A stretch of 64,000 nt of DNA from an uncultured Chloroflexia bacterium (GCA_963813335.1 CAWEYL010000003.1:574372-638371); one strand, 5' to 3'. Shown: positions 6,837-30,928, counted from the first letter of the stretch. The notes: generated from the letters alone by a model not told the origin. Numbers and translations: made by a program.

Positions 6837-8112
6837 GCTGCTCGCGCAGGAGGCGCCCGAAGCGCGCCGCCTGGTCCGCGGGCGGCACCGCGTCGACCCA
6901 GCGACGGAGCAGCGCCTCGCCCTCCGCGTAGACGAAGACATAGGTCCGCCACAGCGGGTGCTCGATGAACTCGAGCCGCTTCGCGGCGGTGTCGGGCGCC
7001 ATCCGCCCGACGGTCTGCAGGTAGTCCAGCACCTCGGCGTGGGTCCGGCCGTCGGCGTGGCGCAGGATCGCCGCGTTGCCGCGGATGGCCGACAGCGCCC
7101 GCCGGGCGGACGTGAGGGCCACGGTCCGCTCCGCGGCCTCGCGGGCCGCAGCCGGATCGGCGGCGATCGGCAGCGCGGCGCGCTCGTACAGCTCGACCAG
7201 CAGGCCGGCCCGCTCGTCGTCCGGGACCGCGTAGCCGATCCCGAGGTCGGCCAGGCCCTCGCTGATCAGGCACTCGGGCGTGTTGATCAGCAGGATGGAG
7301 GCCTCGAGGCGGCCCAGCCCGTCGACAAGGGCCGCCTCCTTCCAGGCGTGCTCGAGGTGGTGGCCCGGATAGGTCTCGTGGGCGACGGTGTCGACCAGCG
7401 CCGACGCGCGGATCGGCAGGTCGGTGTTGATGTCGACCCGCGATCGCCGCCCGCCGTCGAACCAGTTGTAGCCCGACCACGGCTGGTCGCGGACCAGCGA
7501 CACCCGCAGGTCCTCGCCGTCGGGCAACCCGAAGGTCGTCGCGGCACGAGCGCGGAAGCGGGCCACGAGCCAGTCCAGGACCGCCGGTAGCCGGTCGACG
7601 GCGATCTCGAACCGGCGGTCCCACGCCTCGAGGCGCTCGGTCAGGGTCGCGTCGCCGGGGAGCAGCCGATCGATGGCCGCGGCCGCGTCGTCGAACTCGG
7701 TGTCGGGCCGGCGCGGTGGCCGGAACGCGAAGCAGCACTCCACGTGGTCCAGGTACGGCAGCGGCTCGCCGGCCAGGGCTGCGGCCTGGATCTCGAGCGC
7801 CACGAGCTGCGCGTCCAGCCACGTCCGCCGGTCGTCGTCCGCGACCTCGGCGGCCAGCCGGTCCCGCAGCGCGACCGCGTCGTCGCGCAGTCGCGCCGGC
7901 GGGCGGCCCTGCTCCATGTCGACCGTCGCCTTGAGGTTCGCCGGGCCGAAGTAGCCATCGACGAGCCCGGGGATCCGCTGGTCGAGCCGCAGCGCGAGCA
8001 GCAGGTAGTCATGGGCGACAGGGTCGGGCGGCGGGACCGACCGCGTCCCGCCCATCGCCGACACGCGGGCGGCGTCGGCCGAGCGGGCGGCGTCCGGTGG
8101 CCGGTCAGGCAT
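6799..8112 (-). CDS. DUF885-like zinc metalloprotein
   Basis: HETYPGHHLE and SEGLA motifs; start overlaps the upstream stop. Confidence 0.7.
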   Translation of the reverse strand: MPDRPPDAARSADAARVSAMGGTRSVPPPDPVAHDYLLLALRLDQRIPGLVDGYFGPANLKATVDMEQGRPPARLRDDAVALRDRLAAEVADDDRRTWLDAQLVALEIQAAALAGEPLPYLDHVECCFAFRPPRRPDTEFDDAAAAIDRLLPGDATLTERLEAWDRRFEIAVDRLPAVLDWLVARFRARAATTFGLPDGEDLRVSLVRDQPWSGYNWFDGGRRSRVDINTDLPIRASALVDTVAHETYPGHHLEHAWKEAALVDGLGRLEASILLINTPECLISEGLADLGIGYAVPDDERAGLLVELYERAALPIAADPAAAREAAERTVALTSARRALSAIRGNAAILRHADGRTHAEVLDYLQTVGRMAPDTAAKRLEFIEHPLWRTYVFVYAEGEALLRRWVDAVPPADQAARFGRLLREQLTPSAVGAPDPG

Positions 8113-8452
8113 CGCCCGCACCCAGCCCGCCGGTCTCCCCCGCGAACGGCATGTGCTGGCGCTCCACGGCGTCGAGGCTCATCCGCAGCGCGGCGGTCTT
8201 CTGCTCCGCGACCTCGCGGACGTAGGCGGCCTCCTCCTCGGCGGTCATCGGGCGGCCGCGAACGATCCCCTTGGGCTTGCCGACCATCAGCCACGAGAGG
8301 TGGTAGCGGTCCATGGTCCCCCAGGCCGTGGACAGCAGGTCGTCCGAGTGCTGCAGCCAGACGCGTAGCGAGCCCATCGATGGGTCCGCCTGGAGGCGAT
8401 CGCCCTCGTCGACCAGCTGGCGCGTCCGCCGGATCAATTCGTCGCGGGTCAT
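8105..8452 (-). CDS. Hypothetical protein
   Basis: MTRDELIRRTRQLVDEG..., ATGA-coupled to the upstream aminotransferase; protein-like composition. Confidence 0.7.
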   Translation of the reverse strand: MTRDELIRRTRQLVDEGDRLQADPSMGSLRVWLQHSDDLLSTAWGTMDRYHLSWLMVGKPKGIVRGRPMTAEEEAAYVREVAEQKTAALRMSLDAVERQHMPFAGETGGLGAGDA

Positions 8453-9367
8453 CCGCCGTCGGTCGTCCGGCCCGCGATGAGCGCCTCGCGGTCGGCCCGG
8501 GCGCGGGCGGACCACGGCCCCGGGCGCCCGCTCCCGATCGGCGCCCCGGCGAAGCGGGTGACCGGCAGGACGCCCGCGACGCTCGACGAGATGAACGCCT
8601 CGTCGGCGGCCGCCAGGTCGGCCGGGAGCAGCCGCCCTTCGAGCACGCGCAGCCCGACCCGTTCGCCCCACGCGAGCAGCCACGAGCGCGTCGTGCCCGG
8701 CAGGATGGCGCAGTCGAGCGACGGTGTCGCCAGCTCCGTGGCCCCGTCCGCCGCCCGGCGGACCAGGAAGATGTTGGCGGTCGTGGCCTCCGAGAGGTGC
8801 CCGTCGATGGTCAGGAACAGGGCGTCGTCGGCGCCGGCGCGGCGGGCCTCGACCCGCGCGTAGACGTAGTCGGCACGCGACGTCGTCTTGAGCGCGGCGA
8901 GGGGGTTCTCGGGATCGCGCCGCACGGCCGAGGCCACGAGGTGGAGGCCCCTGGGCGAGGTGGTCCGCCGCCGGCGGGACGACCGGCCAGGCCTGGATGG
9001 CGATCGTGGCCGGGACCGCCTCGCCGGACGGGAGCAGCCCGCGGGTCCGGACCGGGCCGCGCGACACCGTGATACGGAGCGAGGCGTCGCCGTCCGGCCC
9101 GGCGAGCCCCTCGGCGGCCAGGAGGTCGGCGATCCCCGTCGCGATCAGCGCATCGAGGTCGGCGGGCAGGGCGATCGCGAGGCCGGCGGCGGAGCGGCGC
9201 AGCCGGGCGAGGTGCTCGGGCAGCTCGGTCGTCCGACCGGCCCGGGCGCGCAGGGTCTCGAAGATGCCGTCGCCCAGCTGGAAGCCGCGGTCGAAGACCG
9301 ACAGGTGGGGACCGTCCGCGGGCAGCAGCCGGCCGTCCACCCAGACGTGGTCGGGTCCCGGGGCCAT
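8449..9367 (-). CDS. Class IV aminotransferase / aminodeoxychorismate lyase (apparent frameshift ~8950)
   Basis: DRGFQLGDGIFETLR, LKTTSRAD, EATTANIF, ILPGTTR motifs split over two frames. Confidence 0.85.
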
Positions 9368-9369
9368 GG

Positions 9370-10798
9370 TCAGGCGACCTCGACCCCGCCGATCGCGGCC
9401 AGCGGGCCGCGCGCCTTCGCGACGGTCTCGTCCCACTCCGCGGCAGGATCGCTGCGGTACGTGATCCCGCCGCCGACGTGGAGCGTCAGCTGCCGGCCGT
9501 CCGCGACGAGGGTCCGGATCAGGATGCTGGTCTGCATCGCCCCGTCCGGCCCGATCCAGCCGAGCGCCCCGGTGTAGGGGCCGCGGCGGACCGGCTCCAG
9601 CTCCTCGAGGATCTCCATCGCCCGGATCTTGGGGGCGCCCGTGATCGACCCGCCCGGGAAGCTGGCCGCGAGGAGGTCGAACGGGTCGCGCCCGGCGGCG
9701 AGGCGGCCGGTGACGGTCGAGACGAGGTGCTGGACGGCCGCCGTGCGCTCGAGGCGGCAGAGCCGCGGGACGCGGACGCTGCCCGGGCGGCAGACCCGCC
9801 CCAGGTCGTTGCGCAGGACGTCGACGATCATCACGTTCTCGGCGCGGTCCTTGGCACTCGAGAGCAGCTCGCGGGCGAGCGCGCGGTCCTCGGCCCGGGT
9901 CGCGGCCGCGCGGCCGCGTGCCCTTGATCGGGTCCGTGCTGACGGCGCCCTCGGCGTCGACGGCCAGGAACGGCTCGGGCGACGCCGACAGCAGCGCGCG
10001 GGGCCGCCCGGACAGCTGGCTCGGCCCGAGGTCGAGGTACGCCGAGAAGAGCGACGGGTCGCCGGTCCGCAGCCGCCGGTAGCGGTCCCACGGGTCGGCC
10101 TCGAACGGCGTCGCCAGGCGCCGGGTCAGGTTCGCCTGGTAGATGTCGCCGCGGGCGATGTGCTCGCGCACCAGCTCGACGCGTGCCTCGTACTCGGCGC
10201 GTGTCAGCCCCGAGCGGAACTCGAGCGTCGGCGCGTCGGGCGGCTCGTCGGCCGCCCGCGCGAGCGCCCGGACTCCCGGGCTGGTCAGCCGGGCATGGAC
10301 GTCGTCGAGCCGGCGCGACAGGCGGCGGGCGTCGCCGTCGAGCGCCCGGCCGCCGAGCCACGCGTAGCCGGTCCGCCGGTCCCAGGCCACGACCCAGTCG
10401 TGCAGCGCCAGCCGGAGGAGCGGCAGACCCTGGTCGTCCGCGGCGATCGACGGCAGCCGTTCGAGCGCGTGGCCCAGGTCGTAGCCGAGGAAGCCGACGA
10501 GCCCGCCGAGGAACCGCGGCGCGTCGGCCGGCACCACGACGGTGCGGTCGAGTCGCGCCACCAGCCGGCGCGCCACGGCGAACGGGTCGGGCCCGGCGGC
10601 CGGCCCCTCGAGGACCGCGACCGGGTCGGCGGTGAGGTAGGTCCAGCGCGCGTTGCGGCCCGGGCGGGCGCTCTCGAGGAGGGCGAGCCCGGGCAGGTCG
10701 CGGAACGCCTCGGCCACGTCGATCGGCCGGGCCGCCGCGAGGCGGTCCGGGAGGCGCCGGAGCCGGAGTGGGGCACTCGGCCGGGGACTGGGGATCAC
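9370..10798 (-). CDS. pabB: Aminodeoxychorismate synthase component I / anthranilate synthase component I family (apparent frameshift ~9900)
   Basis: LLES, GDIYQANL, SASPEPFL, PIKGTRPR, MIVDVLRNDL, FPGGSITGAPK motifs over two frames. Confidence 0.82.
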
Positions 10799-22295: not shown

Positions 22296-23093
22296 TCAGG
22301 AACCCCCGAAGGTCCCCAGGTCGACCGGCGGCAACTCCACCTCGGCGACCGAAGCGAGCGTCCGCGAGGCCGCATCGAGCGGGCCGAGCTGCTGCAGGAC
22401 CTTGAGCATCGACTTCGCGTTCGCGCGGTAGGCCTTCGTGTCGGAGATCGAATCGCCGAGGCTCGAGTGCGCCGATGTCGAGATCGCGCCGTAGAACGCG
22501 GCGCGGTCGCCGGAGAGGGTCTGCGCCTCAGGCCACGCCGCGAGGCGCGGCGCGATGTCGGCCCCGATGGCGGCGTCGGCCGAGAGGGTCCGCAGGACCT
22601 TGGCGATGTCGTTGGCGGACCCACCGCTCGCGAGCCGCGCCAGCGACGAGGCGTCGTCGGCGATCCGGGCGTCGAGGAGCGCGGTCTGTCGGAGCGCGGT
22701 GAGGGCGGCCGGCGACACCGGGATGGCGGACGGCACTGGGATCGTGCTGGGGCCGGCCGCCGCGGTCGCCACGGGGACGGTCCCGCCGTCGGCGGGGTCG
22801 AAGACGGCGGTCGCGGCCGGATCGACGAGGGACTTGATCGCGACGGAGGTGATCATCCCGCCGACGAAGAGCCCGACGATGGCGCCGAATCCGATGAGGG
22901 TCATCGCGCGCCGGACGGCGACGCCCATGATCAGCCTGGTGCCGCAGCCGGGGCACTTGGGCGTGCCGTCGTTGAGGGGCCGCGAGCACGTCGGGCAGTT
23001 GAAGACGTGCGCATCGGCCTCGCCGATCGCGATCTTGGGCGGTCCGTCCGGTCGCTGGCCGGACAGGCGGCCACGCAGGATGTTGAAGGTCAT
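22296..23093 (-). CDS. Zinc-ribbon membrane-anchored hypothetical protein
   Basis: CPTC..CPGC, one TM segment, helical C-terminal domain. Confidence 0.65.
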   Translation of the reverse strand: MTFNILRGRLSGQRPDGPPKIAIGEADAHVFNCPTCSRPLNDGTPKCPGCGTRLIMGVAVRRAMTLIGFGAIVGLFVGGMITSVAIKSLVDPAATAVFDPADGGTVPVATAAAGPSTIPVPSAIPVSPAALTALRQTALLDARIADDASSLARLASGGSANDIAKVLRTLSADAAIGADIAPRLAAWPEAQTLSGDRAAFYGAISTSAHSSLGDSISDTKAYRANAKSMLKVLQQLGPLDAASRTLASVAEVELPPVDLGTFGGS

Positions 23094-23207
23094 CACGCTG
23101 AGTGTCGTCGCCCGGAGCCCCGATTCATCCGACCCGATGGTCCCGACACGAGGCGGGACGTTCGGTGGCGGGCGGTGTGGTCGTGTGGCATCGATCGACA
23201 CGCTAGC

Positions 23208-23222
23208 TGAGACTGAGTATCG
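23208..23222 (+). promoter_or_regulatory. Fur/Zur-type box candidate
   Basis: TGAGACTGAGTATCG resembles the 7-1-7 TGAnAATnATTnTCA pattern, just upstream of fur. Confidence 0.4.
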
Positions 23223-23256
23223 ACAACGGTGCTCCTCCCTGCTACCGTTCGCCGCC

Positions 23257-23691
23257 ATGGACGCCGTCGACCCCCTCACCGCCGCGCTGCATCGGGCGGG
23301 CCATCGCCTGACCGAGCCCCGCGTCGCGGTGATCCGCCTGATCAATGCGCAGACGGGCCATTTCTCCGCCGCCGACCTCGTCCACGACGCGCGGGTCCGC
23401 CACCTCGGGATCGGCCGCGCCACGATCTTCCGGACGCTCGACGTCCTGTCCGAGCTGGGCGCCGTGGAGCGGATCGACCTGCCGAGCGGCGAGCACGCCT
23501 ACGTGGGCTGCGCGCCGACCCATCACCACCACGTCGTCTGCTCGCGCTGCGGCCGTACGGCCGAGATCGAGGACGCCGGGCTGCGGGCCGTGGTCCGCGA
23601 GGTCACCCGGCGGACCGGGTTCCGGGTCGACGAGCACCGCCTCGAGCTGTTCGGGCTGTGCTCGGCCTGCCAGGCGGCGGCCGCCCGATGA
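23257..23691 (+). CDS. fur: Fur family metal-responsive regulator
   Basis: RLTEPR, ATIFRTL, HHHHVVCSRC, FGLCSAC. Confidence 0.9.
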   Translation: MDAVDPLTAALHRAGHRLTEPRVAVIRLINAQTGHFSAADLVHDARVRHLGIGRATIFRTLDVLSELGAVERIDLPSGEHAYVGCAPTHHHHVVCSRCGRTAEIEDAGLRAVVREVTRRTGFRVDEHRLELFGLCSACQAAAAR

Positions 23692-24443
23692 CGCTCGCGG
23701 CCCTCGTCGTCTCGTTCGGCGCCTTCGTCTCAGCCTTCGCCGGCGGCTGGCTCGCGATCCGGGCGGTCCGCTACGTCGGGATCGTCATCGCGGTCGGGGC
23801 CGGCATCCGGATCGGCGCGGCCTTCTTCGACCTGATCCCGGAGGCCATCCGCTACCTCGGCTCCGTCGATGCGGCGATGCTCTGGACGGCGATCGGCTTC
23901 CTGGCGTTCTACGCGATCGAGAAGCTCACCACGCTCCACGTCGGCCATGAGACGGCCGCCGAGCTCGACCATGACGCGGCCATGCACACGCACGTCGGCA
24001 AGGCCGGCGCGGTCGGGATGGGGATCCACAGCTTCCTCGACGGCGTCGCCCTGGCGGCCGGTCTGGCGGTCGGCGGCGGGACCGCGATCGTGATCGCGGT
24101 CGTCGTCATCGTCCATCGATTCAGCGACGGGATCGGCGTGGTGAGCTTCCTGCTGGCGAGCCGGATGCCGTCGTCGACGGCCTATCGCTGGCTGACGATC
24201 GTCGCGATCGCCCCGCTGGCCGGCGTCCTCGTCGGGGTGGTCGTCAGCATCGAGCAGACGGCGCTCGGGGCCGTCCTCGCGTTCTTCGCCGGCTTCTTCC
24301 TGTACGTCGGCGCGGCGGAGCTGCTGCCGGAGGCGCACCGGCGCGCCCGGTCGCGCTGGATCGTGCTGGCCACCGTCGGCGGCGCGGCGGCCATCTACCT
24401 GTTCTCCGTGGCGGTCGGGGCCATCGGCGTCGACGCCCCCTAG
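23688..24443 (+). CDS. ZIP family metal transporter
   Basis: HSFLDG and HRFSDG metal motifs, ELLPEAH; ATGA-coupled to fur. Confidence 0.9.
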   Translation: MTLAALVVSFGAFVSAFAGGWLAIRAVRYVGIVIAVGAGIRIGAAFFDLIPEAIRYLGSVDAAMLWTAIGFLAFYAIEKLTTLHVGHETAAELDHDAAMHTHVGKAGAVGMGIHSFLDGVALAAGLAVGGGTAIVIAVVVIVHRFSDGIGVVSFLLASRMPSSTAYRWLTIVAIAPLAGVLVGVVVSIEQTALGAVLAFFAGFFLYVGAAELLPEAHRRARSRWIVLATVGGAAAIYLFSVAVGAIGVDAP

Positions 24444-24551
24444 GTACGAGGGTCCCACGACCCGCGGGTGACCATCGGCGGCATCGCCGGACGAAACCTT
24501 TGCGGCCGGCGTTGCCTCGGGTGAGTAGACACCATCCGCCCGGAGCATCCG

Positions 24552-25253
24552 ATGGCCACTGCGAACCCAGCACGGAGCGGCCCGCCGTTCCGCCTCACCT
24601 TGCGCGGGACGGCGATCCTCGTCGGCCTGCTCGGCGTCCTGCTCGTCTATGCGACCGACCAGATCCTGCCCGCCTCGACCGATCGGCAGGCCGAGCTGCG
24701 GTTCTGGCTCGCGGCGCGGGCGACCGGCATCGTCGCGTTCCTGCTGCTGACCATGCAGATCGTCCTGGGCCTGGTCCTCAGCCACCCGACGAACCGCTCC
24801 ACCTGGAACCTCTCGAAGCGGATCTTCCCGTGGCACGACCACCTCTGGGTGTTCGTGCTCGCGTTCCTCATCGCGCACATCGTCAGCCTCGTCGTGGACC
24901 CGAAGGCCGGCGTCAGCCTCGCCGGCGCGTTCATCCCGGGCCTCTCCGAGTACCGCAGCTCGCCCGTCGCCATCGGCACGCTTGCCCTGTACGCGTTCCT
25001 GATCACCGCGATCACCGCACGCTGGACCAAGCTCCTGCCGCGCGGCGTCTGGCTGTCGATCCACCGCCTGGCGCTCGTGATCTGGGTGATGGCCTGGATG
25101 CACGGGGTGCTCGCAGGCACGGACACCGGCTCCCTGGCCGGCCCCTACGTCGCGGCGGGCCTGCTCGTCGTGTGGGCCGGGGCCTACCGCTACTGGGCGA
25201 GCCGCAAGCAGCGGCCGACGTTCTCGACGTCGCGCCAGGAGGTCAACGAATGA
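24552..25253 (+). CDS. Ferric reductase-like / MsrQ-like di-heme membrane protein
   Basis: ARATG after TM1; four His in helices (WHDHL, AHIV, IHRL, MHG). Confidence 0.8.
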   Translation: MATANPARSGPPFRLTLRGTAILVGLLGVLLVYATDQILPASTDRQAELRFWLAARATGIVAFLLLTMQIVLGLVLSHPTNRSTWNLSKRIFPWHDHLWVFVLAFLIAHIVSLVVDPKAGVSLAGAFIPGLSEYRSSPVAIGTLALYAFLITAITARWTKLLPRGVWLSIHRLALVIWVMAWMHGVLAGTDTGSLAGPYVAAGLLVVWAGAYRYWASRKQRPTFSTSRQEVNE

Positions 25254-25720
25254 ACATCTCGTCGCTCCGGTTACGTCGCCTGCTCACGGCCGTCGGGGTC
25301 GTCGCGGCGCTGGTCCTCGGGTTCGGCTCGATCAGGGTCGCCGCCGCCTGGACCGCCGCGTCAGCGCCCATCGGCGTCGCGCCCATCCCGGTCAGCTCGA
25401 TCCAGGACCGGCTCGACCAGGAGCTGGCCCGCTCGGAGACGATGCGGGCGCAGCTCGATTCGCTCGCGGCGCAGTCCACCGAGATGACGACGGCGCTCGA
25501 GGCGGCCCAGGCCCGGATCGCGGCCGACACCGGGCACGCCAAGGCCCTCGCCGACGAGCTCAAGACCGCCAAGCAGAAGCTCGCCAAGCTCGCGGCATCG
25601 ATCGCGAAGGCCAAGGCAGCGGCAGCCCGGGCGACCGTGACGACGAAGGCGGCGGCGCCCGCCGCGACGCCGACCCCGACACACCATGGCGACGACGACG
25701 AGGGTGAGACCGGTGGCTGA
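25250..25720 (+). CDS. Membrane-anchored or exported coiled-coil protein with His/acidic tail
   Basis: LRRLL plus hydrophobic segment, long heptad-like helix, tail HHGDDDEGE; ATGA-coupled. Confidence 0.75.
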   Translation: MNISSLRLRRLLTAVGVVAALVLGFGSIRVAAAWTAASAPIGVAPIPVSSIQDRLDQELARSETMRAQLDSLAAQSTEMTTALEAAQARIAADTGHAKALADELKTAKQKLAKLAASIAKAKAAAARATVTTKAAAPAATPTPTHHGDDDEGETGG

Positions 25721-26126
25721 GCGCCGGCCGGTCCACCTTGCGGTCCTCATCGGCGCGTCCGCGGGCGCCTACGCCATCTCCCTCGCCGGCGTGACCGCGC
25801 TCCAGTCGGCCACGGACGCCCGCGTGGCGGCCGAGCGCGGACCAGCCAGCCACGCCGTCGATGTCGTGGCGGCCGGGCACGACGACCTGCAGGCCTCGGT
25901 GGACGGGGCGAGCGGGGCGTTCACCGTGGCAGCCGACCGGTACGCCGCCCTGACGAGCCACCTGGCCGACATGGAGGCCTCGCTCGACCACCTCGGGCAG
26001 CGGGTCGCCAAGGTCTCTGGGGCGGCCGGCGCGCTGCCGACGCGGGTCAGCCTGCCGAGCATCCATGCCTCGGCACCGGTCACCAGGACGAAGGTCGTCC
26101 ATGCGACCACGGGGGCCTCGGGCTGA
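25713..26126 (+). CDS. Membrane-anchored helical protein ending in TTGASG (candidate flavinylation substrate)
   Basis: GTG start overlapping the previous gene, ERRP plus hydrophobic segment, terminal [S/T]GA[S/T]. Confidence 0.7.
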   Translation: MAERRPVHLAVLIGASAGAYAISLAGVTALQSATDARVAAERGPASHAVDVVAAGHDDLQASVDGASGAFTVAADRYAALTSHLADMEASLDHLGQRVAKVSGAAGALPTRVSLPSIHASAPVTRTKVVHATTGASG

Positions 26127-27148
26127 GCACGGGAGCAGCCGCCGCATCGCCAGCTGCCGTCCGCGAGGCGCCTGAGAGCGTCCACCGCTTCGAGGGGAAG
26201 GCCATGGCGTCGCCCCTGCGCCTGAGTGTGTGTGGGCACGGTGACGCCGATCGGGCGCGCGACTGGGAGGTCGACGCCGCCTGGGCCGCGGTCAGGACGG
26301 AGTTCGAGACCGCCGAGGCCGAGCTGTCGCGCTTCCGGTCGACGAGCGACCTCACCCGCCTGAACCTCGCCGCCGGATCTGGACGGCCGGTCGACGTCCC
26401 GCGGCGGCTCGAGCGCGCCATCGTCGCGGCGGACCGGGCTCACCGCGTCACGGGCGGCCGCTTCGATCCGCGCGTGCTCCGCGACCTCGACCGCCTCGGC
26501 TACGCGGGCGCCCCGCTCGGGACGCACTCGGCCACGCCGGACGCGGACCGGGCCGCCGGCACCCGCGTCGTGGATCAGGCGCGGCGCGGCCGCGTGGTCA
26601 CGTCCGCGCCGATCGATCTCGGCGGGATCGGCAAGGGCCTCACGCTCCGCTGGGCCGCGGCGCTCCTCGACCGACGAGGCATCGGGCGATACCTGCTGGA
26701 AGCCGGCGGCGACCTGGTCGCCCGCGGACCCGGACCCGACGGCGGCCCGTGGCTCGTCGGCATCGAGGATCCAGCCGGCGGTCCGGACCCGCTGGGCGCC
26801 ATCGTCGTGGAGGACGGGGCGGTGGCGACATCGTCGGTCCGGATCCGGTCATGGGTCCATGACGGCCGGACCGTCCATCACCTGCTCGACCCGCGGACCG
26901 GCGAGCCCGTGGAGGCCGGGCTGCGATCGGTGACCGTGGCCGGTCCGGACCCGGCCTGGGCCGAGGTGTGGTCGAAGACCCTGTTCGTGGGCGGTCGACG
27001 GGCGATCGCCGCCGAGGCCCGTTCGCGTGGCCTCGCCGCCTGGTGGGTGACCGACGAGGGCGCGCTCGAGATGACGGCGGCCGCGCGCGCCCGAACGGCC
27101 TGGATCGAGGGCGAGGACGAGTCGAGGCGGCCGACTGTCAGCCGATGA
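26123..27148 (+). CDS. apbE: FAD:protein FMN transferase (start uncertain: CTG 26123 or ATG 26204)
   Basis: RFEGKAMAS, LSRFRSTSDLTRLN, IDLGGIGKG, EAGGD, AVATS, HHLLDPRTG. Confidence 0.9.
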   Translation: MSTGAAAASPAAVREAPESVHRFEGKAMASPLRLSVCGHGDADRARDWEVDAAWAAVRTEFETAEAELSRFRSTSDLTRLNLAAGSGRPVDVPRRLERAIVAADRAHRVTGGRFDPRVLRDLDRLGYAGAPLGTHSATPDADRAAGTRVVDQARRGRVVTSAPIDLGGIGKGLTLRWAAALLDRRGIGRYLLEAGGDLVARGPGPDGGPWLVGIEDPAGGPDPLGAIVVEDGAVATSSVRIRSWVHDGRTVHHLLDPRTGEPVEAGLRSVTVAGPDPAWAEVWSKTLFVGGRRAIAAEARSRGLAAWWVTDEGALEMTAAARARTAWIEGEDESRRPTVSR

Positions 27149-27652
27149 CCGAGGTGGGCGAGACCGGGCGCACCGCGAGCTTGGTCGACTGGTGGGGTCC
27201 GGTCACGATGACTTCCTCGGCCAGCTCTTCGCCATCGCCGTATCGAACGACGAAGCGATGGTGAACCTCGGTCATCCCACTCGATAGCGTCGAACCGACC
27301 GAGCAGTACTTCGTCGCCGACAGTTCGATGGCCCGGCGGACCGCGTCGCTGTCGACCGACGCACCGTCAACGACGTGGAGCACATCGATCCGGGTGAAGG
27401 CGTTCGGGTGGTCGTCCTGTTGCGTGCCGCTGGCCAGCACCCGATAGCCGGTCACGGCCTGGCGCTTCTTGCGCAGGATGGAGATGACATCCATCGCGGT
27501 GCAGCCCGCGATCGCCATCGGGATCAGCTCGGCCGGGCGCATGCCCGTGTCGCCCCGACCGTCGTCGAGCACGAGAGCATGCCGGCTCCCGGATTCGGCG
27601 ACGAATGGAGACCCTCGCCGTCGAGGGTGATGGTTGCGGTCTTGGTCGTCAC
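27138..27652 (-). CDS. OsmC/YhfA family protein (apparent frameshift ~27605)
   Basis: PAELIPMAIAGCTAMDV and AIELSATKYCSV. Confidence 0.85.
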
Positions 27653-28581
27653 GGTCGTCTCCAGCGCTGCAAGGTCGGCGGGCCAGAGTCATGGACACTG
27701 ACGCGGACCCGACCACCGGCTGGGCGTGCCTCGATCGCGACTGCTCCTCCCCGGGGACTGTGGCGGATCGCGTTGTCGACGAGTGCGCCGAGGACCTGTC
27801 GCAGGCGGTCGACATCACCGATGACGACGAGATCCGGCGATGCATCAGCGTCGAGCGTGATCCCGGATGCCTGGGCGCGTGCGGAGAACGACTGGGCGAT
27901 CGTGTCGATCAGCCCGCGTACCGCGACGGGCCCTTTGCGGAGCGGCAGGTCGCCAGACTCGGCGAGGCCGATCGTTCGAAGGTCGTCGACGATCCGTGCG
28001 AGCAGGCGTGACTGGTCGCGAATGGTCTCGAGGTGTCGATCCTCATGCTCGTAGACGCCATCGATGACCGCAGTGGTCGTCGCGTCGATGACGGTGAGCG
28101 GTGTCTTCAGTTCGTGGACGACGTCCTGGAGGAACCGCTGGCGCGCGGCCTGGGCCTGCTGGAGTTCGCCGGCCATCGCGTCGAACGATCGACCGAGCGA
28201 CCCGATCTCGTCGCCTCGGCTGCCGAGCCCCGAACGGCGGCCGAGGTCGCCGTGGGCGACGGCTTCGGCGGCTCCGCCGAGGGTGCCCAGTGGCCCCGCG
28301 ATCCGTTGTGCGAGCAGCACGCCGATCAGTGATGCGCCTGCCGCGGCTGCGATCGCGACCGTGATCAAGGTGACGGTGGTCTCTTGCTGGATCTGCTGCG
28401 CGTGCATCCCTGCCATCGCGCCGGGACCTCGCCCGGGTCCCGGGCCAGGCGCTCCAGAAGCGTCCGACTCGATCTGGGCGAACCCTCGACCGACGATCGT
28501 CGGGGTCGCGAGCGCCACCGCGGCCGCGGTGATCAGCGCGACGAAGGCGAACGTCAGCGCGAGACGCAGTCGCAGGCTCAC
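27649..28581 (-). pseudogene. HAMP sensor histidine kinase, C-terminally truncated
   Basis: HELKTPL H box, LVDNAIRHS N box; stops just after HDSGP with no F or G2 box. Confidence 0.75.
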
Positions 28582-29267
28582 GGCCGGGCCGCCCGATAAC
28601 CCACCCCTCTGGCCGTCTCGATGTATTGCGCGCCGTCGGGCCGTGCACCGAGTTTGTGGCGAAGGTTCTTCACGTGGCTGTCGATCGTGCGGTCGTACGC
28701 ATCGAACTCGTGGCCGAACATCGCGCTCGCGAGCTGGTCTCGCGACAGCACGACGCCCGGTCGGTCGGTCAACGCGACGAGCAGGTCGAATTCGATCCGC
28801 GTGAGGGCGAGCGCTGTCCCGCCTCGGTCGACTTGGCGGGCACCGAGGTCGATGTCGAGGTCGAAGAACCGCGATGTGCGATCCGTCGTGTGTCCACCGT
28901 CGGCTGCTGTGCGTCGGAGGACGGCGCCGACCCGCGCGACGAGTTCTCGGGGCTCGAACGGCTTGGTCACATAGTCGTCGGCGCCGATCTCAAGTGCCGC
29001 GACGCGGTCGATGACATCGTCGCGAGCGGTGAGCATGATCACCGCTCCTCGGAAGTCGCTCGCCCGAAGATCCCGCAGCACCTCGAACCCGGATCGCTTC
29101 GGGAGCATCACGTCGAGCACGATCAGGTCGGGCGATCCCGACCGAGCCCTCTCGAGCGCACTTTCGCCGTCCGTCGCCGACGAGACGTTGTGGCCTTCAC
29201 GAACGAGGTATGCACGCACGACATCGAGGATGTGCGCTTCGTCGTCGACGACCAGGATGCGGGCCAT
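28578..29267 (-). CDS. OmpR family response regulator
   Basis: VVDDE, LDVMLP, GADDYVTKPF, RTIDSHVKNLR, TARGVGY. Confidence 0.95.
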   Translation of the reverse strand: MARILVVDDEAHILDVVRAYLVREGHNVSSATDGESALERARSGSPDLIVLDVMLPKRSGFEVLRDLRASDFRGAVIMLTARDDVIDRVAALEIGADDYVTKPFEPRELVARVGAVLRRTAADGGHTTDRTSRFFDLDIDLGARQVDRGGTALALTRIEFDLLVALTDRPGVVLSRDQLASAMFGHEFDAYDRTIDSHVKNLRHKLGARPDGAQYIETARGVGYRAARP

Positions 29268-29333: not shown

Positions 29334-29813
29334 CTACCTGCTCATGGCTCCATGCGGGCCGCTTCCGTCGCACGTGCCGGTCCCGGCCGTCCCGCGACCC
29401 ATCCCTGTCGGACCGGCACCGACCGCGACGCCGCGCATCCCGCCCGTCGTCACCTTGTCGACCATGTCCTTGGCGCGCAGTTCGACCTGCGCCTTCAGTG
29501 TCGCCGCCTCGCCGGCGGTGATCGCCCCGTTGGCGACGCGCGCCTCGATGCGCTCGGTCCATCGCGCCCGCAGAGCATCGACCAGCTTCTGCGGCTCGAC
29601 GTTCTGGCGCTCGGCGATCTGCGCCAGCGACAGTCCCTCGTGCCGCAGCGCCATCACCTCCGCCTGGGTCAGTCCCAGGATCGTCGGGACCGTGTCTCGG
29701 CTGCGGATCTGGTCGCCGGCCTGAGTCGGCTGCGGGGTCGCGGCGATCACGCCGCCCGCCAGGGCGATGACGACAAGGGCTGCGCCCCCGAACGAGATGA
29801 CGATCTTCCTCAT
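29334..29813 (-). CDS. Exported helical hypothetical protein
   Basis: Signal peptide; LGLT..E....GLSLAQIAE and GAIT..EA repeats; GGAGG RBS. Confidence 0.7.
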   Translation of the reverse strand: MRKIVISFGGAALVVIALAGGVIAATPQPTQAGDQIRSRDTVPTILGLTQAEVMALRHEGLSLAQIAERQNVEPQKLVDALRARWTERIEARVANGAITAGEAATLKAQVELRAKDMVDKVTTGGMRGVAVGAGPTGMGRGTAGTGTCDGSGPHGAMSR

Positions 29814-30006
29814 CTGGTGCCTCCTGGGATGGTTCGATCCTTCACGGATCTGGCCCACTCACGAGCCGAGCGGGTGGATGCAGCGAGCATCGCGGCCCTG
29901 GGTGAAGGCACGATGGAGGCTGCGTGCCGATTCGAAGGAGAATGCCGCTCAGGACGAATGGATGCGGTATCCATCCGGGTGCGAGTCTCGCCGGTCAGTG
30001 CCGGGG

Positions 30007-30928
30007 TTACGCGCCTTCGATCCCGGGCGATGCGGCGTCCACCGCGGCGGCGTCCGGCATCCCCTCGCGGGCGCCGGCCCGTGTGACCGCAAGGCTGGCG
30101 GCGATGACGGCCCGCTGCGCGGCGGCGGCCAGGTCCAGGCCCGCGGCGAGCCCGGCGGCCAGCGCCCCGTTCAGCGCGTCGCCCGCGCCCACGGCATCGA
30201 CCGCGTCGACTCGCGGGGCCTTGATGACCGTGGACCGCCGACCGACGTACCAGGAGCGCGCCGTCCGACCCGAGGCTCACCAGCGCGGCCCGCTTCGCGC
30301 CGGTGCCGAGGAGGTTCTTCGCCACCGCTGCGGGCTTGCCCGGTCCGGCGAGCGTCTCCAGTTCGCCGCGGTTCGGGGTGAGGATATCGGCGAGGTCGAG
30401 CGTGGACCTGCCCAGGCCGGCGGCGGGCGCCGGGTTCAGGATCGTGGTCGAGCCAGCGAGCCGCCCGAGACGGAGCGCCTCATGGGTGGCCCCGGTCCGG
30501 ATCTCGTGTCCGACCAGGACGACGTCGTGCGGCCCGAGCGCCAGCTTCTTGAGCGCCTCGCGGACCTGGACCGAGTCGAGCGCCGAGTTCGCGCCACCCG
30601 CCACCGCGATGCTGTTCTCGCCACCCTGGTCGACGAGGATCAGGGCGACACCGGTCGGCTCGTCGAGCGTGAACAGACCCGCCAGGTCGATGCCTTCGGC
30701 CTCCAGCGCCTCGCGCGCGTCGAATCCGAACGCGTCGCGACCGACCGCGCCGATGAACGAGACGTCGGCGCCCAGCCGCGCGGCGGCGACCGCCGCGTTG
30801 GCGCCCTTGCCGCCGTGGTGGCGCTCGTAGCGGCCGCCGATGACGGTCTCGCCGGGCCCCGGCAGGCGTTCGACCGTGACGACCAGGTCGATGTTGACCG
30901 ATCCGACGACGACCACCCGGCCGGCCAT
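30007..30928 (-). CDS. rbsK: Ribokinase (apparent frameshift ~30245)
   Basis: GSVNIDL, GGKGANAA, LNPAPA, NRGE, DAVGAGDA. Confidence 0.85.

Follow-up and report, generated by a model that had tools for sequence, protein, structure and literature searches.

Can a bacterial cell pass electrons outward through a flavin carried on the bare tail of a membrane-anchored stalk? This question is raised by a 64,000-nucleotide stretch of DNA from an uncultured Chloroflexia bacterium (GCA_963813335.1, CAWEYL010000003.1:574372-638371; hereafter the window, i.e., the whole stretch that was analyzed, with a G+C content of ~72%). An earlier note, made from the sequence alone, had described positions 23208-27148 as a candidate system for reductive metal uptake or extracytosolic electron transfer based on flavinylation, i.e., on the attachment of flavin mononucleotide (FMN) by ApbE. 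Our analysis centers on a core of four genes, designated here cytb, hel1, hel2, and apbE, with a promoter-like motif in front of them (24493-27148). We judge it somewhat better than an even bet (a probability of roughly 0.55) that this core is a self-contained, lineage-specific flavin-based transmembrane electron-transfer module working by the mechanism proposed below. It fits best among the MsrQ-like flavinylation systems, as a variant that adds a new class of ApbE substrate.

A conserved four-gene core

The gene map was built from a listing of open reading frames (ORFs), the raw sequence, and Pfam and NCBIfam scans. It agrees with the genes and coordinates given in the earlier note, and the first position named there, 23208, is the first base of a palindromic box. 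The features are as follows.

23208-23222, no strand: 7-1-7 inverted-repeat operator-like box of the TGAGACT-n-AGTCTCA type, the window copy having 2 mismatches
23257-23691, plus strand: fur, Fur-family regulator (Pfam FUR, 1.6e-28)
23688-24443, plus strand: ZIP-family divalent-metal importer (Pfam Zip, 1e-23; weak NCBIfam ZupT match)
24493-24519, plus strand: promoter-like motif GAAACC-N16-NCTC[AG], 59 nucleotides (nt) upstream of the cytb start
24552-25253, plus strand: cytb, candidate di-heme cytochrome b with six transmembrane (TM) helices, 233 amino acids, with invariant His pairs
25250-25720, plus strand: hel1, anchored coiled coil, overlapping cytb by ATGA
25686 (or GTG 25713)-26126, plus strand: hel2, anchored coiled coil, overlapping hel1
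26109-26120, plus strand: codons for T142-G143-A144-S145, Ser145 being the predicted target of ApbE, two codons ahead of the hel2 stop
26204-27148, plus strand: apbE, family of flavin adenine dinucleotide (FAD):protein FMN transferases, without a signal peptide (Pfam ApbE, 1.1e-50)

The ZIP start overlaps the fur end by ATGA, and a gap of 108 nt separates ZIP from cytb. Four overlapping genes had been described; three core genes do overlap, whereas apbE begins 77 nt past the hel2 stop (ATG 26204), in a frame that is open far upstream, yet offers no ATG, GTG, or TTG before that position.

Scanning a genome collection with a hel2 alignment retrieved 57 related loci, which together with the window make up 58 sources, and the core genes in them were detected by jackhmmer over stop-to-stop ORFs. 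The relatives are metagenome-assembled genomes (MAGs) labelled Chloroflexia, Chloroflexota, or Candidatus Limnocylindria/Limnocylindrales, with one labelled Actinomycetes. This survey revealed hel2 in 58, cytb and hel1 each in 57, and apbE in 55 of the 58 sources, in constant order and on one strand. The missing cytb and hel1 belong to a single 2.7-kb contig that begins inside hel2. One apbE is missed at a contig end, and the other two absences (L009, 10420-11453; L045, 8514-9786) are true losses, in which pfkB, usually located after apbE, adjoins hel2. The helical genes co-occur with apbE and the cytochrome gene nearly without exception. Such an arrangement is far beyond chance, and the core is a real, conserved, lineage-specific module.

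A flavinylation motif at the C-terminus of hel2

The flavinylation motif of ApbE substrates has been given as D-x-x-[S/T]-G-A-[S/T] (PMC12052999; this and the other papers cited below are represented here by parts of their text). A seven-residue motif ending in the modified Ser/Thr suffices and works best at a protein terminus, and swapping its leading Asp for Ala had minor effects only (PMC12052999). The hel2 protein of the window ends in TTGASG, and its T142-G143-A144-S145 conforms to the [S/T]-G-A-[S/T] part of this motif with Ser as acceptor. S145 and G146 do not vary among 27 diverse sequences, in which the conservation of T142, G143, and A144 is 90% or higher, so the [S/T]GA[S/T] site that the earlier note had invoked is found conserved at the hel2 C-terminus, with apbE adjoining.

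Across the 58 loci, the hel2 tail carries the strict motif within its last 14 residues in 30 cases, a Cys-flanked tail of the C-T-T-A-S-G-K-P-C type (x-A-S-G) in 19, a relaxed motif in 5, and none in 4, the last comprising two assembly frameshifts with DNA that still codes the tail, one GGS tail, and one other Cys-flanked tail. The strict motif is likewise present in the last 14 residues of 90 of the 150 best hel2 representatives. A conserved S-G-G-S-A tail subfamily also occurs among the hel2 representatives.

The tail of hel1 is more varied. By our own criterion, it is rich in Asp/Glu/His in 31 of the 58 loci; it carries its own T-G-A-S-G followed by a short acidic end in 12, is short in 6, of another kind in 8, and absent in 1. 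In addition, it ends in D[DGN] in 43 of 58 loci, and the His/Asp-tipped stalk noted earlier for the window is therefore the usual form of hel1. All 12 loci with a motif-bearing hel1 (L017, L021, L023, L025, L027, L028, L029, L033, L035, L036, L040, and L051) have a Cys-flanked hel2 tail, and the hel1 motif occurs in 0 of the 39 other loci; these loci are related and do not count as 12 independent events. The pattern suggests a role swap between the two stalk proteins, or a loop closed by a disulfide or a metal. Furthermore, both loci that lack apbE on a continuing contig (L009 and L045) read GGS, not GAS, in the hel2 tail, a suggestive, two-case hint that the tail tracks the loss of apbE.

Two anchored coiled-coil proteins without a known domain

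In hel1, an arginine pair is followed by a single hydrophobic helix, a coiled coil, a Thr/Val/Pro/Ala linker, and an acidic/His C-terminal tail, which in the window is coded by 25682-25717 and reads HHGDDDEGETGG; R9, R10, and W34 are invariant in 39 sequences. The layout of hel2 comprises a single hydrophobic helix, a coiled coil, a Pro-rich linker, and the C-terminal tail with the flavinylation motif. An arginine pair precedes the anchor in 56 of 57 hel1 and 47 of 58 hel2 proteins, and the N-termini of both match the rest of the twin-arginine translocation (Tat) consensus poorly.

Neither protein matched a Pfam or NCBIfam family at E<=0.01, and relaxed scans of 27 hel2 and 39 hel1 relatives returned just sub-threshold generic coiled-coil models. 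No match of either protein to FMN_bind, DUF2271, or DUF3570 was obtained, nor to the other domains known to be flavinylated (NqrB/RnfD, Flavodoxin_4, and FMN reductase), and these Pfam/NCBIfam scans bear out the earlier remark that no classical FMN_bind domain is visible in the helical proteins. A possible relationship of hel1 and hel2 as paralogues was rejected (hhalign probability, 6%).

Beyond the genome collection, distribution was judged from protein sets without gene context. We found 172 hel2 homologues in a set of 5.8 billion proteins, and the hel2 profile recovered 446 clusters at E<=1e-3 (269 at E<=1e-10) in a set of 1.84 billion representatives. Nearly all family members are 135-240 residues long.

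A candidate di-heme cytochrome

The His pairs H95/H109 and H171/H184 of cytb are invariant in an alignment of 28 sequences that are 59-91% identical to the window protein. The pairs sit on helices 3 and 5 of six TM helices, with spacings of 14 (H95/H109, model helix 93-115) and 13 (H171/H184, model helix 166-187). We take two His pairs with such spacings on helices 3 and 5 to be the bis-heme pattern of cytochromes of the NADPH oxidase (NOX)/ferric reductase domain (FRD) type. There is no dehydrogenase domain in cytb.

In the ESM Atlas, 24 of 30 named matches are clusters bearing PF01794, and some sources label cytb relatives as MsrQ/YedZ or as a predicted ferric reductase. A sub-threshold Ni_hydr_CYTB match was seen for the window protein (E 7.6e-4) and for 20 of the 28 relatives, and Ferric_reduct was seen in 1 of the 28 (1.1e-6). 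Comparison with Protein Data Bank chains by sequence gave no meaningful match. The best Foldseek matches, all weak (E ~0.1), were SpNOX, cytochrome b561, Dcytb, NOX5, DUOX1, and STEAP2, and thus the nearest folds are all di-heme electron carriers; the top entries, SpNOX 8qta and 8qq7, reached template modelling scores of 0.35-0.39 (E ~0.1) with a query model whose predicted local distance difference test (pLDDT) was 68. We read cytb as a candidate divergent member of the FRD/MsrQ-like superfamily.

A fifth invariant His, H78, lies at the predicted cytoplasmic end of helix 2 in the 28 sequences, and residues 212-226 form a conserved cytoplasmic tail of the form Y-R-Y-W...R-P-T-F-x-T-S. H78 and the Y-R-Y-W tail are possible docking features for a donor or a quinol.

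Predicted assembly of cytb, hel1, and hel2

A three-chain prediction of cytb, hel1, and hel2, each with its own alignment and with hel2 as the scored chain, was carried out in 3 runs and 3 controls. The interface score ipSAE was 0.82 in all three runs, and the best control reached 0.15. For reference, 116 of 157 solved complexes attain that mark, as do 2 of 215 mismatched pairs; this benchmark holds only roughly here because own alignments and three chains were used. The runs share at least 86% of contacts, and the partner pLDDT is at least 73.

In the model, hel2 touches cytb through residues 13-42, at helices 1-3 and an outer loop. Its residues 44-121 meet hel1 in heptad-spaced contacts that have equal residue numbers on the two chains, a pattern that indicates a coiled coil that is parallel, in register, and directed away from the membrane. 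By a by-eye reading of the sequences, the modelled orientation of each of the three proteins is in keeping with the positive-inside rule. AlphaFold-type complex prediction, which had been named as a check on the original idea, thus supports an assembly of the cytochrome with hel1 and hel2 through its score relative to the controls.

ApbE and the place of flavinylation

The assignment of apbE is secure by profile (PF02424, 173 bits against a cut-off of 25.6), and residues 14-287 of its product align to the Salmonella enterica/Escherichia coli ApbE structures (3pnd, 2.6e-26), including the His of H-x-x-D-P-x-T-G. By-eye inspection of the N-termini revealed no hydrophobic leader in any of 55 loci; a few residues precede the conserved domain, and the protein begins immediately past the stop of hel2. 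We also considered a programmed frameshift that would fuse hel2 to ApbE and thereby anchor ApbE outside, and rejected it: the hel2 stop is kept in all inspected relatives, and in L019, L032, and L039 the ApbE frame is closed by a further stop, located after that of hel2 and ahead of the ApbE domain.

Since ApbE has no export signal and the stalks carry arginine pairs, flavinylation is probably cytoplasmic and precedes a Tat-type insertion. Bacterial Rieske proteins are inserted via Tat with their cofactor aboard, and the most economical hypothesis is that the free tail is flavinylated in the cytoplasm and the cofactor-bearing signal-anchor is then inserted in a Tat-type manner. Both cytosolic ApbE and Tat-exported ApbE homologues are known (PMC12052999; PMC7660919).

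Proposed mechanism

In the mechanism that we propose, an FRD/MsrQ-like cytochrome b would carry two hemes across the membrane, as its His pattern suggests. According to the model, hel1 and hel2 would be single-pass proteins with the N-terminus inside and the C-terminus outside, forming a parallel heterodimeric coiled-coil stalk whose TM helices pack on the cytochrome. Motif, gene adjacency, and covariation point to a dedicated ApbE that would attach FMN to Ser145 in the flexible hel2 tail or, in one subclade, to the hel1 tail instead. On the outer side, the tethered FMN could then be a mobile carrier of one or two electrons, with the acidic/His tail of hel1 as its most likely cation-binding partner. 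Judging from the gene neighborhood only, the most likely job of the module would be to reduce extracytoplasmic Fe(III), Cu(II), or Mn oxides for assimilation, and we regard metal reduction by the module as plausible.

A more specific picture is conceivable, in which a bare C-terminal tag, flavinylated by cytoplasmic ApbE and inserted via Tat, lets FMN swing as on a "fishing line" between the cytochrome and a cation held on the hel1 tail. The module would then be a bacterial counterpart of yeast Fre1 and plant FRO2, built from entirely different parts. We hold this picture to be doubtful.

Points weighing against the module and its metal role

Several findings argue against the reading given above; those that concern the proteins are collected here, and those that concern regulation and the metal in the following two sections. 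The earlier description of cytb as a four-His ferric-reductase-like membrane protein stands as regards the invariant His pairs and falters at the family level: the window protein has no PF01794 (Ferric_reduct) match at E<=1 and lies below the Pfam gathering threshold. Its AlphaFold model is mediocre (pLDDT 68; predicted template modelling score 0.62), and Foldseek with this model returned nothing at E<=1e-3. All of the synteny comes from one class-level lineage (soil/freshwater Chloroflexota, Ca. Limnocylindria-type MAGs). Moreover, the ~78 helical residues of the modelled coiled coil would make a stalk of roughly 11 nm and hold the tails ~11 nm from the outer heme, so that the direct hop of electrons from cytochrome to FMN-tipped stalk that had been envisaged is doubtful unless the stalk bends or a mediator serves. 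The arginine pair is absent from 11 of 58 hel2 proteins, a leaderless ApbE fits poorly with an outward-facing substrate, and where the canonical motif opens with Asp, the window has His and relatives have His, Asn, Gln, or Ser.

The apparently cytoplasmic ApbE, the absence of the leading Asp, and the fact that hel1 and hel2 match generic coiled-coil models alone would also suit a different explanation, namely, that the helical proteins are structural envelope proteins with an unflavinylated small-residue tail and that ApbE serves a substrate encoded elsewhere. We consider this very unlikely, given that the motif lies at a fixed place with its Ser-Gly invariant in the 27 diverse sequences, in a family of 446 clusters, and that apbE is directly downstream in 55 of 58 loci. 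In addition, one subclade has the motif on hel1, loci that have lost apbE show an altered motif, and the complex model docks the helical pair on the cytochrome.

fur-ZIP as a neighboring operon

The 7-1-7 box is conserved upstream of fur across loci. The copy at 23208-23222 is the sole match with <=2 mismatches in the 64-kb window. Our nucleotide-motif counts cover 1.07 Mb (all sources), in which the box, at the same threshold, occurs 39 times: 32 copies lie within 200 nt upstream of fur, and the others just after fur or before a transporter gene. Boxes upstream of fur were found in 27 of the 44 fur-bearing sources, 5 of which have two copies. The Fur-like box of the earlier note is accordingly present and palindromic, and it is confined to the fur region. 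In L014, L017, L023, L037, L040, and L055, a second 7-1-7 box lies just past fur, before the binding-protein gene, which suggests separate control of the transporter genes. Ahead of the Fur-type box, the window (23120-23175) and the equivalent positions in relatives share a conserved element that is G+C-rich and hairpin-like, with ACGTTCGG after it. This element may represent the end of the divergent gene upstream or an additional site of regulation.

The core differs in its sequence motifs, and this counts against the link to fur-ZIP. No 7-1-7 box is present near cytb in the 1.07 Mb at that threshold, and a second Fur-type box at the core, sought in all sources, was rejected. Instead, the core has a promoter-like motif of its own: GAAACC-N16-NCTC[AG], sought on both strands, gave 47 matches, all of which lie 54-153 nt upstream of cytb on the same strand, and it is kept in loci without fur or a transporter. 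The motif looks like a dedicated promoter of the core and presumably resembles promoters of alternative sigma factors. An RNA element at this place was rejected; a promoter is favored because the spacer is fixed at 16 nt with an unconserved sequence and no Rfam family matched. None of the 57 window ORFs scanned, a set outside which some small ORFs fall, is an extracytoplasmic function sigma, anti-sigma, or Tat gene. A simple scan of 22900-27500 found neither a sigma-70 promoter nor an intrinsic terminator, and read-through co-transcription of fur-ZIP and the core is possible given that no terminator was found.

Upstream of cytb, the 57 loci other than the window fall into four groups.

fur and a ZnuA/ABC/ABC-3 transporter: 39 of 57 loci
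fur and ZIP: 4 of 57 loci (L001, L002, L011, and L016), the closest relatives of the window
neither fur nor a transporter, with at least 6.7 kb of upstream sequence: 7 of 57 loci
sequence too short to judge: 7 of 57 loci

The core is thus paired with fur and a divalent-metal importer in 43 of 50 informative loci, and the type of importer is interchangeable. ZIP, which had been cast as the partner of the core, is kept only in the window and 4 of the 57 loci, with a ZnuABC-like system in 39 and neither in 7. Unrelated neighbors (a CrtC-like lipocalin gene and pfkB) are syntenic in the lineage as well, so adjacency to fur and a transporter may be inherited gene order, a further point against a functional link. 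Co-regulation of fur-ZIP with the core was not demonstrated, as the box occurs only around fur and the core has its own promoter-like motif. We conclude that fur-ZIP is a neighboring metal-uptake operon with its own operator, whose link to the core is one of adjacency and not demonstrably one of a shared transcription unit.

Which metal?

The regulator and the binding protein both bear against a reductive role. The fur product aligns to Mycobacterium tuberculosis Zur/FurB (2o03, 5.5e-22), including the Cys before the His run, which we take to be part of the Zur sensing site; the best Fur match, 9ire, lacks that Cys, though it scores slightly better overall, the Fur and Zur scores being about equal. 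The regulator is probably Zur-like, as judged from these alignments. For the binding protein of relatives, the closest entries are 8svc, 5kzj, and others of the AztC/TroA/MntA-like kind, and this protein has a His at the position aligned in both best structures, presumably the third ligand of the Zn/TroA type in place of the Glu of Mn/Fe types. Zinc needs no reduction, and a regulator and a binding protein that look zinc-type favor zinc and so weaken the reductive-uptake reading, together with the earlier proposal that ZIP imports the reduced ion.

These observations would also suit a zinc-limitation accessory, i.e., a Zur-regulon module that aids zinc acquisition while the imported ion is not reduced. 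The His/Asp/Glu tail of hel1 could then capture Zn(II) for the ZIP or ABC importer, two unrelated importer types that occupy the same slot and can both carry Zn(II), and the flavin and cytochrome could oxidize thiolate or sulfide ligands or dissolve Fe/Mn oxides that hold zinc. The core, however, has its own promoter-like motif and no Fur-type box, 7 loci keep it without fur or a transporter, the hel1 tail carries a flavin motif in 12 loci and hel1 lacks an acidic tail in 6, and the choice between Zur and Fur/Mur from sequence is uncertain, with a Fur entry slightly ahead overall. We regard the zinc accessory as unlikely.

The wider neighborhood of the relatives is rich in redox-metal functions. 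Within 10 kb, they have genes for the FTR1 iron permease (11 loci), a multicopper oxidase with Rrf2, the copper chaperones SCO1 and PCuAC, and DsbA/VKOR, the last divergently upstream in many relatives; none of these was found in the window itself. In the relatives, the module sits in a redox-metal neighborhood. The metal/redox island lies 1-8 kb upstream of fur or cytb (e.g., L030, 5251-8619; L036, 3364-8327; L052, 5825-8008), and in several loci FTR1 is divergent from fur, sharing the intergenic region that contains the box. The metal role assigned to the locus from the start therefore keeps the metal-handling neighborhood of relatives on its side, and it loses the link to ZIP, which is not conserved, and faces a regulator and a binding protein that look zinc-type.

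The DsbA/VKOR genes are also relevant to another possibility, in which the core would be an MsrQ-type supply line. It would pass electrons to O2, to free flavins, or to a soluble enzyme outside the cytoplasm whose gene lies elsewhere (for example, a reductase for protein repair or detoxification), and metals would not be the target. The naming of cytb relatives as MsrQ/YedZ or ferric reductase by a source and the description of MsrQ-like flavinylation clusters with varied partners (PMC8238504) would agree with it. No MsrP-like or other reductase gene, however, lies within the conserved core, metal genes dominate the neighborhood, and the acidic/His tail of hel1 is left unaccounted for, and we rate such a supply line as quite unlikely. 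The reading of the core as an electron-transfer module with a plausible, neighborhood-based role in metal reduction is the one that we carry into the comparison below.

Other features of the window and its relatives

Between apbE and pfkB (29810-30928), the window has an OsmC-like gene and a histidine kinase/response regulator pair on the minus strand (27138-29267). In L007, L009, and L045, pfkB follows directly without these genes, and the OsmC-like and two-component genes look like an insertion in the lineage of the window. The divergent gene upstream of the box (22296-23000, minus strand), which is syntenic in many relatives, encodes a zinc-ribbon-like N-terminus (Pfam Zn_Ribbon_1 match of only 0.009), one TM helix, and an Ala-rich extracytoplasmic part. 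At 8108-10798 on the minus strand, overlapping ORFs divide between them chorismate-binding and class IV aminotransferase domains, a split that reflects either errors of assembly or a fused gene of the PabB/PabC type that contains frame breaks. Frameshift-like breaks are seen in several related long-read MAG loci as well; L001, L002, L011, L016, L031, L053, L054, and L056 show such breaks and were excluded from one alignment.

Comparison with known systems

Reductive metal uptake in eukaryotes is exemplified by yeast Fre1 with Fet3/Ftr1 and by plant FRO2 with IRT1. In these reductases, a cytoplasmic NADPH/FAD domain is part of the same protein, and metal reduction occurs at the outer heme. The locus described here resembles them in having a candidate FRD-type cytochrome by ZIP (in the window) or by FTR1 and a multicopper oxidase (in relatives). 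It differs in having no dehydrogenase domain, in the tethered FMN stalk that would be interposed, and in an importer link that is one of adjacency.

In Listeria, PplA is a lipoprotein with folded FMN-bind domains that is flavinylated by the exported FmnB. The flavin-based extracellular electron transfer system of that bacterium shares with the present one, in which flavinylation is predicted, a membrane-tethered, ApbE-flavinylated surface protein, a likely single-membrane cell, and a proposed hand-over of electrons to outside acceptors (PMC9973259). Here, by comparison with PplA/FmnB, a helical stalk bearing a tag at its terminus is the predicted substrate, ApbE is leaderless, and the membrane partner is another protein.

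The closest likeness is to the MsrQ-like flavinylation clusters described by Meheust et al. in 2021 (PMC8238504), in which apbE is clustered with a two-heme FRD-superfamily protein of six TM helices, electron transfer is proposed to run outward, and some clusters are linked to iron importers. As described in the part of that survey represented here, those clusters have a PF01794 match, typically an FMN-bind protein, often an NAD-binding domain, and are mainly actinobacterial (PMC8238504). The present core has instead a cytb below the PF01794 threshold, no FMN-bind, DUF2271, or DUF3570 domain, a coiled-coil substrate with a bare terminal motif, and a leaderless ApbE. The 2021 survey dropped genes or clusters for which neither a signal peptide nor a site of lipidation was predicted and left ~4% of ApbE-encoding genomes without a known substrate (PMC8238504). 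A 2024 follow-up added Flavodoxin_4 and FMN-reductase substrates and DUF4405 cytochromes, and all of the substrates it added, as represented here, are folded flavoproteins (PMC11334425). A search of published full texts on ApbE and flavinylation turned up no account of this module in Limnocylindria/Chloroflexota and none of a coiled-coil tail-only substrate, a search outside which the supplementary cluster list of PMC8238504 falls.

ApbE substrates described so far are folded flavin-binding domains, and the hel2 family (at least 446 clusters) appears to carry the terminal motif on a coiled coil. If confirmed, this would be a substrate class invisible to domain-based searches, it would offer a compact three-protein system (a cytochrome and two stalks) in which to study the exit of electrons from a cell with one membrane, and it would raise the testable question of where an ApbE that lacks an export signal flavinylates its substrate. 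The nearest parallel to the tail itself is the Flavin-tag of Tong, Fraaije, and co-workers, in which a short terminal peptide with the ApbE motif is enough for covalent attachment of FMN (PMC12052999). That tag was made in the laboratory and has Asp as its first residue, whereas hel2 represents a natural family with His, Asn, or Gln, known from sequence alone; if the proposed flavinylation is confirmed, nature uses the same minimal-tag principle that engineers found independently.

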